Shown piece after piece: positions 44,902 through 45,699 of a DNA stretch of 64,000 nucleotides. A program made the position numbers and the translations under genes. Numbering within the stretch: position 1 is the stretch's first letter; every line of letters starts with the position of its first letter. A model generated the notes under the pieces. The model saw nothing but the letters and a program-made list of their open reading frames with translations, was not told the origin of the DNA and searched no databases. This DNA comes from a virus, in IMG/VR virus record IMGVR_UViG_3300037011_000606, positions 31,098 to 95,097 of that record. One strand, written 5' to 3'.

Positions 44902-45699
44902 ATGTGTATGAATATGAAGGATGGAGAGATGTGTATGAAGGTTGAATGTAATAATGAGATTGTGGATAAGGTAAGAGATTTGATAGTTGGGTTTGAGATT
45001 AGGAAGGATGAAGAAAGGATTGAGATGGATAGGAATAATAATGATAGTTTGAGAATGTGGAAGGAGAAGAGGAAGAATGAGATGTTATTGGTTAAGTATG
45101 GTAAGGTGATTAATGAGGTAAGGAAGAATTTGAGGATTGTTGAAGAGTTGGGGGTTGTTAAGGGGAATGGTTGGGAATTTTGGAAGAATGAGGTGAGTGG
45201 TGGGAGAGAGATTGAGATTGTGAGTTTTGGGAATAAGGTTAAGGAAGTTGTTGAAGGTTATAAGGTGATAGTTGAGAGAAAGAATGTTTGTGAGAATTGT
45301 GGATTGAGTGTATGTAGATTGGATTGGGTGATGGATGAGAAGATGGTTAAGAAGAGTGGAAGAGGATTTGTTGGAAAGATGTTGGTTGGGAATTGTGGGT
45401 TGAAGTGGAATTGTGAGTTGAAGAATGATGAGTTTGGTGTTGATGTTGTTGAGGGTGTATTGGAAGGAGTTTGGAGTGAGGTTATAGATGGAGATAGGAT
45501 GGAAAGGAAAGTTGAGAGTGATTTGAGATATGAGAATTTTGTTAAGGATTGGAATAATGGAGTGTTTTTGAGAAAGTGGAAAGTTAATAAGATGAGAGAG
45601 TTGGATGAGAAGGTAAAGAATAAGGGAAGGTTGATTGTTGAGAGATTGAATAGGATGTTGAATGAGAAGAAGGTAGTTGATGGAGTGGTGATAGAGTGA
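44902..45699 (+). CDS. first early gene; 265-aa protein encoded without cytosine
   Basis: AGGTGA RBS at 44891; uninterrupted ORF; no A, P, T, Q or H residues; CENC..C motif. Confidence 0.85.
   Translation: MCMNMKDGEMCMKVECNNEIVDKVRDLIVGFEIRKDEERIEMDRNNNDSLRMWKEKRKNEMLLVKYGKVINEVRKNLRIVEELGVVKGNGWEFWKNEVSGGREIEIVSFGNKVKEVVEGYKVIVERKNVCENCGLSVCRLDWVMDEKMVKKSGRGFVGKMLVGNCGLKWNCELKNDEFGVDVVEGVLEGVWSEVIDGDRMERKVESDLRYENFVKDWNNGVFLRKWKVNKMRELDEKVKNKGRLIVERLNRMLNEKKVVDGVVIE

Follow-up and report, generated by a model that had tools for sequence, protein, structure and literature searches.

Several known systems depart from ordinary base or residue usage in ways that resemble parts of the locus described here. 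Szybalski's rule states that sense strands are biased towards purines and towards G over C. In phages T5 and T7, the DNA that enters the cell first (first-step-transfer DNA and leading end, respectively) is poor in restriction sites and encodes the first anti-defence proteins. Engineered proteins of reduced alphabet fold and function with fewer than 20 residue types. In phages and archaeal viruses with 7-deazaguanine DNA, G is partly or wholly replaced (PMC6884629, PMC10516641), and DpdA, the signature protein of such DNA, is encoded by all viruses known to carry it (PMC10516641). Synthetic G-less or C-less cassettes allow RNA to be made in vitro without one nucleotide (nucleotide-omission method, PMC8969151). 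A search of open-access full text found no published account of natural genes or viral regions that do without one base, and no published link joins 7-deazaguanine modification to base-free genes.

The locus lies in the genome of an uncultured tailed virus. The window, i.e., the whole stretch of 64,000 nucleotides analysed, comprises bases 31098-95097 of a 95,097-bp IMG/VR record rated complete, and its coordinates are used below unless stated otherwise. At a divergent junction, the + strand carries a block of 2,087 nt (43903-45989) with a sole C at 45831. As C is kept off the sense strand, G is kept off the template strand, and the complement carries one G. The + strand is devoid of C over 43903-45830 (1,928 nt) and again over 45832-45989. 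Given a sense-strand C frequency of 0.137 elsewhere, the chance of a 1,928-nt C-free run is ~1e-123. The 95-kb genome has no second such block, and its runner-up C-free run measures 104 nt. The left edge of the block is step-like and the right edge is fuzzy, with seven Cs in the 250 nt past the block and a normal C content from the gene at 46239. The features of the junction are as follows.

Left of 43.9 kb, - strand: terminase, portal, and tape-measure genes
43022..43864, - strand: first leftward gene, with two CxxC pairs
43888..43909: left boundary motif, composed of a T-rich TATA-like stretch, TACGT, CCC, and TAATA; the last + strand C is at 43902
43903..44890, + strand: non-coding leader, 21% G+C, no ORF longer than 54 aa
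44579..44834, + strand: 8-nt iterons, ATTGGTTA, four exact copies and three with one mismatch, in a single orientation
44891..44896, + strand: ribosome-binding site AGGTGA, with the ATG five bases on
44902..45699, + strand: 265-codon C-less gene, ATG at 44902, protein of 31 kDa and pI 8.0
45704..45729, + strand: oligo-T tracts T6 and T5 just past the stop, hairpin-less, candidate archaeal-type terminator
45748..45900, + strand: 50-codon ORF with the sole C of the block and a weak ribosome-binding site
45943..46083, + strand: 46-codon gene with a strong ribosome-binding site and three Cs
46080..46238, + strand: 52-codon gene with four Cs; end of the low-C stretch
46239..46433, + strand: 64-codon gene, the first with ordinary C (10%)
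Right of 43.9 kb, + strand: small early-type genes and, farther on, replication and nucleotide-metabolism genes

The locus shares traits with each known system and departs from all of them. Consistent with a Szybalski-type or Rho-avoiding bias, the coding strands of this genome are depleted of C in both gene orientations (C 0.14 versus G 0.28-0.30), and the rest of the virus's genes have 13-15% C. Unlike that bias, the depletion at the junction is absolute, is limited to a single 2.1-kb block whose edge is step-like and conserved in sequence, includes non-coding DNA, and reduces proteins to 15 residue types; the host is also probably Rho-less. As in T5 and T7, a short block that should be nearly free of restriction sites heads the early region, with non-coding control DNA coming first. 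However, T5 and T7 avoid particular sites, whereas here a whole base is avoided and the tolerated Cs make palindromes. The window virus resembles 7-deazaguanine viruses in having a full preQ0 pathway, and a G-free template would lack the modified base, but it differs from them in having no detectable DpdA of any subfamily. The laboratory cassettes are short and non-coding, whereas the block is natural, coding, evolving, and 2 kb long. Studies of transcription could use such blocks directly as coding cassettes without C. Compared with engineered reduced-alphabet proteins, the product of the 265-codon gene belongs to a natural family, whose alphabet is family-wide and imposed by nucleotides rather than designed.

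The original prediction, made from the sequence of the 265-codon ORF, described an intact frame that uses A/G/T codons behind an AGGTGA ribosome-binding site, and codon counts confirm it. There is zero C in 44902-45699; Leu is encoded by TTG 17 times and by TTA once, Ser by AGT (seven times), and Arg by AGA and AGG (ten times each). The alphabet of the 265-residue protein consists of exactly 15 residues (CDEFGIKLMNRSVWY), from which Ala, Pro, Thr, Gln, and His are missing as had been stated; these five amount to 21% in the virus's other proteins. The frame is free of stops for 268 codons, far beyond chance: when this A/G/T sequence was shuffled 2000 times, the longest stop-free frame had a mean of 47 codons and never exceeded 106. 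The prediction had held that 265 open codons imply selection. The remaining two frames contain 29 and 52 stops. Purines occupy 83% of first codon positions, and codon periodicity is present. This ORF is a true protein gene that evolves fast. No other long gene lies between it and the divergent control region to its left, and it belongs to a fast-evolving early module, having its own translation start and a candidate terminator behind the early control region. The prediction had confined the feature to this gene. The lack of C in the gene holds, but the constraint belongs to the 2.1-kb block, of which about 1 kb (the first 990 nt) is non-coding and equally C-free.

We then inspected the non-coding leader. 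It contains A/T-only palindromes (44511-44581 and 44618-44683), direct repeats, and oligo-T runs of T6, T6, and T7. Exact copies of the iteron are expected by composition at ~0.05 per 260 nt. The cumulative GC-skew minimum of the genome is at ~44 kb, within the block, and no mirror-image block is present leftward of the putative origin. The sequence of the leader resembles an origin or an operator array. TATA-like octamers are too frequent in such AT-rich DNA for placing start sites, and a combined motif of TATA plus ACGT is not a general promoter across the genome. A second repeated motif of ~9-11 nt, TTAGTTGTT type, is seen at 44060-44240 and 44680-44700, and also at 9271-9300 of L007, a contig of the related virus described below.

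On the left side, the first leftward gene is a member of a large unnamed viral protein family, a few of whose members have HTH domains. The annotated N-terminus of this ORF contains a 15-C run (15 G on the gene's strand) at 43798-43812; in another sample, this run is shorter by one base. The gene probably starts near residue 74 (~43645), because the relative's protein begins ~70 residues later, and 43646-43902 is probably an untranslated spacer. On the right side, the 50-codon ORF may not be a gene. The 46-, 52-, and 64-codon genes look like one operon, and C climbs inside it.

As a block without C might arise from chemically or enzymatically converted reads or from a chimeric assembly, we inspected independent assemblies. 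The block is present in Logan contigs from three sediment metagenomes of three studies. One of these contigs, 94,954 nt long, is identical to the window across 42000-48500, and the assembly from a second study has two differences over 43516-47573, neither of which adds a C. Nothing except the oddity itself favours an artefact. Against it, three runs from three studies and the independent 94,954-nt contig carry the block, conversion would make stops and yet the frames are intact, and a divergent relative has a matching block in the matching place. Conversion was thus rejected, and we regard an artefact of either kind as practically inconceivable. In the second study's assembly, the flanks at 42000-42326 and 47545-48172 differ from the window by 5-7%; the sequences suggest a recent sweep of the early block or its exchange between strains.

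A metagenome scan returned two contigs, L007 and L008, of one related virus, with L007 coming from other metagenomes than the window virus. L007 shares the two leftward genes with the window. Of these, the block's immediate neighbour has 65% identity overall, and more in its C-terminal 170 residues, and the second is recognisably like that of the window virus. The boundary motif also lies at the exact left edge of the L007 block (L007 9038-9063), and the non-coding DNA around the motif does not align between the two viruses. The L007 block comprises 1,658 C-free nucleotides, two Cs, and another 438 C-free nucleotides, and holds ORFs of 56, 42, 245, and 126 codons, all of which lack C. Only the 245-codon ORF is homologous to a window gene. 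The other ORFs, missed by the original prediction, are unrelated to the genes of the window and are likewise C-free; hence, the exclusion of C follows position and not the gene, and the block persists although its gene content is exchanged. The L007 leader is partly similar to that of the window, with three exact iteron copies (L007 9162-9253) and oligo-T runs of T12 and T8, and a T13 tract lies at L007 10654 in the matching place after the early gene, again with no hairpin. The two in-block Cs of L007 sit between this oligo-T terminator and the start of the next gene, and C returns ~25 nt past a perfect TATA-like octamer. The window's 64-codon gene has a counterpart at L007 11624-11872 (35% identity, E 4e-12), and the C content is ordinary in both. 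The candidate terminases of the two viruses are merely 19% identical, and the early protein has diverged down to 33% identity while its leftward neighbour stays at 65%. Throughout the 2.1-kb block, C is kept off the sense strand by long-term selection. The structural modules of the two viruses differ, and the shared part is mainly the junction module. The rare Cs of both viruses (window 45831 and 46016-46244; L007 10714-11291) are followed by G in 13 of 19 cases, several of them in ACGT; this share compares with 21% genome-wide and with ~43% from local composition, against which it is marginal.

The family of the 265-residue protein was sought in a search space of ~15 billion proteins in all. 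One true homologue, P0002, was found among 1.84 billion representative proteins, and a profile search of a set of 5.8 billion clusters added P0011, P0012, and the protein of the L007 locus. The four homologues are 33-68% identical to the window protein, and the pairwise range within the five-member family is 33-85%. All five members have the same 15 residues, with 1,277 residues and no C-requiring one among them. The alignment contains at least 322 residue changes, none of which is to Ala, Pro, Thr, Gln, or His (P ~5e-34). The predicted natural reduced-alphabet protein under selection is thereby upheld. No homologue with a normal 20-letter alphabet was found among the ~15 billion proteins, and therefore the comparison by which the prediction proposed to trace C-to-T changes has no object. 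The profile search proposed along with it did yield homologues, whose indels are in frame; the two closest members have 38 differences, which are largely conservative. Given the conservative changes and in-frame indels, purifying selection acts on the protein sequence, too. The locus demonstrates that an entire transcription block, together with a protein family, can be kept by natural selection to three letters and 15 residue types across deep divergence, and it provides natural examples for the question of how few amino-acid types a working protein needs.

The CENC..C cluster mentioned in the prediction is present, and Cys130, Cys133, Cys138, and Cys165 are invariant in all five members. The spacing is CxxCxxxxC, with the fourth Cys 15-34 residues farther, so that the family has four conserved candidate metal ligands (Cys4). 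Invariance extends to a Gly/Trp-rich block and a Trp-x2-Gly-x2-Leu-x2-Trp block. Searches of Pfam, PHROGs, PDB sequence profiles, and the ESM Atlas yielded nothing similar to the 265-residue protein. Transketolase rows from the Atlas were rejected, as their scores of 0.80-0.81 are at chance level, and P0003 was ruled out as a relative for being a low-complexity repeat protein. Scans of GTDB genomes gave no family member, IMG/VR scans with single proteins and alignments returned only the L007-type virus, and cultured phages gave no match at the DNA level. AlphaFold2 reached a pLDDT of 29.7 with the single sequence and 35.7 with three sequences. We infer that the protein is mostly helical with a Cys4 metal-binding knuckle and may act as an early effector that binds nucleic acid or polymerase; this reading of its role is drawn from its position and Cys pattern only. 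For the predicted immediate-early effector, the position fits (the first long gene of an early module, followed by oligo-T), but no functional homology was found. A C-free block may also serve as a simple sequence signature by which to find, in uncultured viruses, the genes that are expressed first; these are the likeliest anti-defence genes.

The host is quite probably archaeal, as judged from a tRNA-like gene, an ERCC4 nuclease, PolB, TATA-type octamers, and hairpin-less oligo-T. The tRNA-like gene (139 nt, L005 6309-6447 in genome coordinates) scores 41 bits with the Rfam tRNA model and has normal acceptor, D, and T arms, with inserts of 32 nt in the anticodon region and 43 nt in the variable region; it is not called by ARAGORN. 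ERCC4 is encoded by the virus itself, and the best full-length cultured matches of PolB are from haloarchaeal tailed viruses. The octamers lie upstream of genes, and oligo-T without a hairpin follows the early gene in both viruses. The proteome looks mesophilic (IVYWREL 0.39). No DxDGD motif of a virus-encoded RNA polymerase is present in any long frame. The preQ0 set is complete, with GCHY-1/FolE2 (2.9e-76), PTPS/QueD (2e-25), radical SAM/QueE (8.7e-13), and QueC (6.2e-70), and its genes are arranged in an operon:

L006 12270-15297 and window 223-939 (genome 27270-32036): QueD, QueE, phosphoribosyltransferase, FolE2, UDG-family protein, and QueC

Genes for an NMP kinase, a class II RNR, HD and MazG-like hydrolases, and PolB are located near this operon, and its unnamed neighbours have no PHROG or Pfam match. 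A six-frame search of the complete genome for DpdA with PF01702 (TGT) and PF20314 (DUF6610, DpdA4) gave no match at E<=1. The operon is a candidate for a DpdA-independent, nucleotide-level route to 7-deazaguanine DNA or for a tRNA-directed function. Two cultured viruses with proven 7-deazaguanine DNA served as controls, and neither has a C-free block: the longest C-free run is 78 nt in CP220 (Campylobacter phage, all G replaced) and 47 nt in HVTV-1 (Halovirus, 30% of G replaced).

Since zero C is maintained over hundreds of substitutions, each single C must have been selected against or removed. We lean, by a narrow preference, towards selection that acts via the first round of transcription. 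The block would be the first DNA transcribed, by the RNA polymerase of a probably archaeal and mesophilic host; each G:C pair with its C on the sense strand would be costly at that moment, and this cost would therefore drive the count to zero by selection. Over the few small genes that follow, the pressure would ease, the first proteins being present by then. This reading is favoured because the strand matches both early transcription and the genome-wide bias, and because the Cs of L007 lie in promoter-to-start spacers. The start of the block in a divergent control region also supports a link with transcription. Against such a link, the non-coding leader, with its iterons and palindromes, is as C-free as the genes, and its oligo-T runs should halt a rightward transcript, so that a purely transcript-linked cause would require the leader to be transcribed; and C in the window rises within an apparent operon rather than at a transcript boundary. 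The pattern points to a strong agent at the very start of infection that tells G:C pairs apart by strand; a host defence is one possibility, and a cost arising from the chemistry of the viral DNA is another.

Two variants of first-transcription selection are considered. The favoured one, which we hold tentatively, is a G-free template strand in a virus whose G is replaced by 7-deazaguanine: such a template would contain no modified base, offer no target for host attack on modified G, and be readable at once. Replacement of G is deemed probable because the virus encodes the preQ0 pathway, the phosphoribosyltransferase, the NMP kinase, RNR, HD, the MazG-like protein, and PolB. It is opposed by the lack of DpdA, by the two control viruses, and by the virus's other genes, which are read from the same DNA with their ordinary share of C. 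The preQ0 genes could instead serve tRNA rather than DNA modification. In the fuller form of this variant, preQ0 would pass through the phosphoribosyltransferase, kinase, and RNR to PolB without DpdA, the C-free block would be a modification-free template that host polymerase reads at once, even under host attack on modified G, and the 15-residue protein would license the rest of the genome; we consider this full scheme unlikely. In the other variant, also possible although doubtful, C in the nascent RNA would be the liability, owing to agents such as the chain terminator ddhCTP, a C-specific RNase, or a deaminase.

Selection through first transcription has to be weighed against explanations that assign the block to entry, mutation, or the properties of its messages. 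If the block were the first DNA to enter the cell, it could have been purged of restriction targets, with the boundary motif as genome end or pac site; the 2.1 kb would enter and wait, and the 265-codon ORF would encode an anti-defence protein. A C-less strand indeed has no G:C-containing palindromic site and few asymmetric ones, and first entry would account for C-free coding and non-coding DNA, for contiguity, and for edges of which one is sharp and conserved and the other fuzzy. The iterons share one orientation, as in pac or cos regions, and the adjacent conserved gene comes from a viral family of DNA-binding type. However, the tolerated Cs make palindromes (ACGT at 45829-45832; TACGT and AACGTT in L007), the genome-wide depletion of sense-strand C is left unexplained, and the assemblies (IMG record and Logan contig) are circular permutations of each other whose break points are arbitrary, so that no fixed end is visible. 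We consider first entry improbable. A mutational, non-adaptive origin, to which we give scarcely more than a slight chance, would have the + strand repeatedly single-stranded, through displacement at an adjacent origin or through intense early transcription in which it is the non-template strand, and deaminated, be it spontaneously or through a host enzyme, too fast for C to persist; the genes would simply survive in what remains. The GC-skew minimum at the block fits an origin, as does the A/T-only unwinding-type region with iterons, and the gradual recovery of C over the following genes and the virus-encoded UDG-family protein also agree with it. In contrast, the mesophilic proteome makes heat-driven deamination weak, and this form was rejected on that ground. 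A balance of mutation and selection normally spares C in constrained codons; rather than a graded skew that spares constrained sites, the block shows no C at all across 1,928 nt, and no C-requiring residue occurs among the 1,277 residues or arose in the 322 changes. In addition, the left edge is a step with no gradient, and the leftward side lacks a mirror-image block.

The remaining explanations concern messages rather than DNA. First messages could be selected to be incapable of G-C pairing and thus open to translation at once, or to need no CTP, which would be the scarcest NTP where a sediment host grows slowly. With a predicted folding energy of -0.076 kcal/mol per nt, the ORF message should be almost unfolded; four other early genes have values between -0.20 and -0.25. 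A sense strand that is C-poor genome-wide fits cheap messages. Neither benefit needs an absolute zero, though, nor does either explain the non-coding DNA and the sharp boundary, and the leader is predicted to fold better than the ORF via its A-U palindromes; this origin is quite improbable. More improbable still is avoidance of Rho in a bacterial host, by which an untranslated leader and the first genes would be hidden from Rho. The leader is long and untranslated, as this explanation has it. To our knowledge, archaea are without Rho, and the indirect signals make an archaeal host probable, for which reason Rho avoidance was rejected; moreover, Rho needs a C-rich stretch, and single Cs would be harmless. 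In bacteria with runaway transcription, Rho avoidance drives purine-rich, C-poor sense strands (PMC13323073), and Rho with NusG can act even on C-devoid RNA (PMC7819879). Factor-dependent termination in archaea uses U-rich RNA (PMC13675443).

Among the modules flanking the block, the structural one includes a 2,286-residue ORF (34328-41188, - strand) that has no Pfam match and is missing from L007. On the early side, the product of the 64-codon gene is probably a winged-helix protein, and 46239-48259 encodes several small early proteins with weak winged-helix signals (HrcA-type and Mnd1-type; E 0.005-0.04). The residues that require C make up 9-16% of the early proteins downstream of the block, versus 20-29% of the structural proteins.
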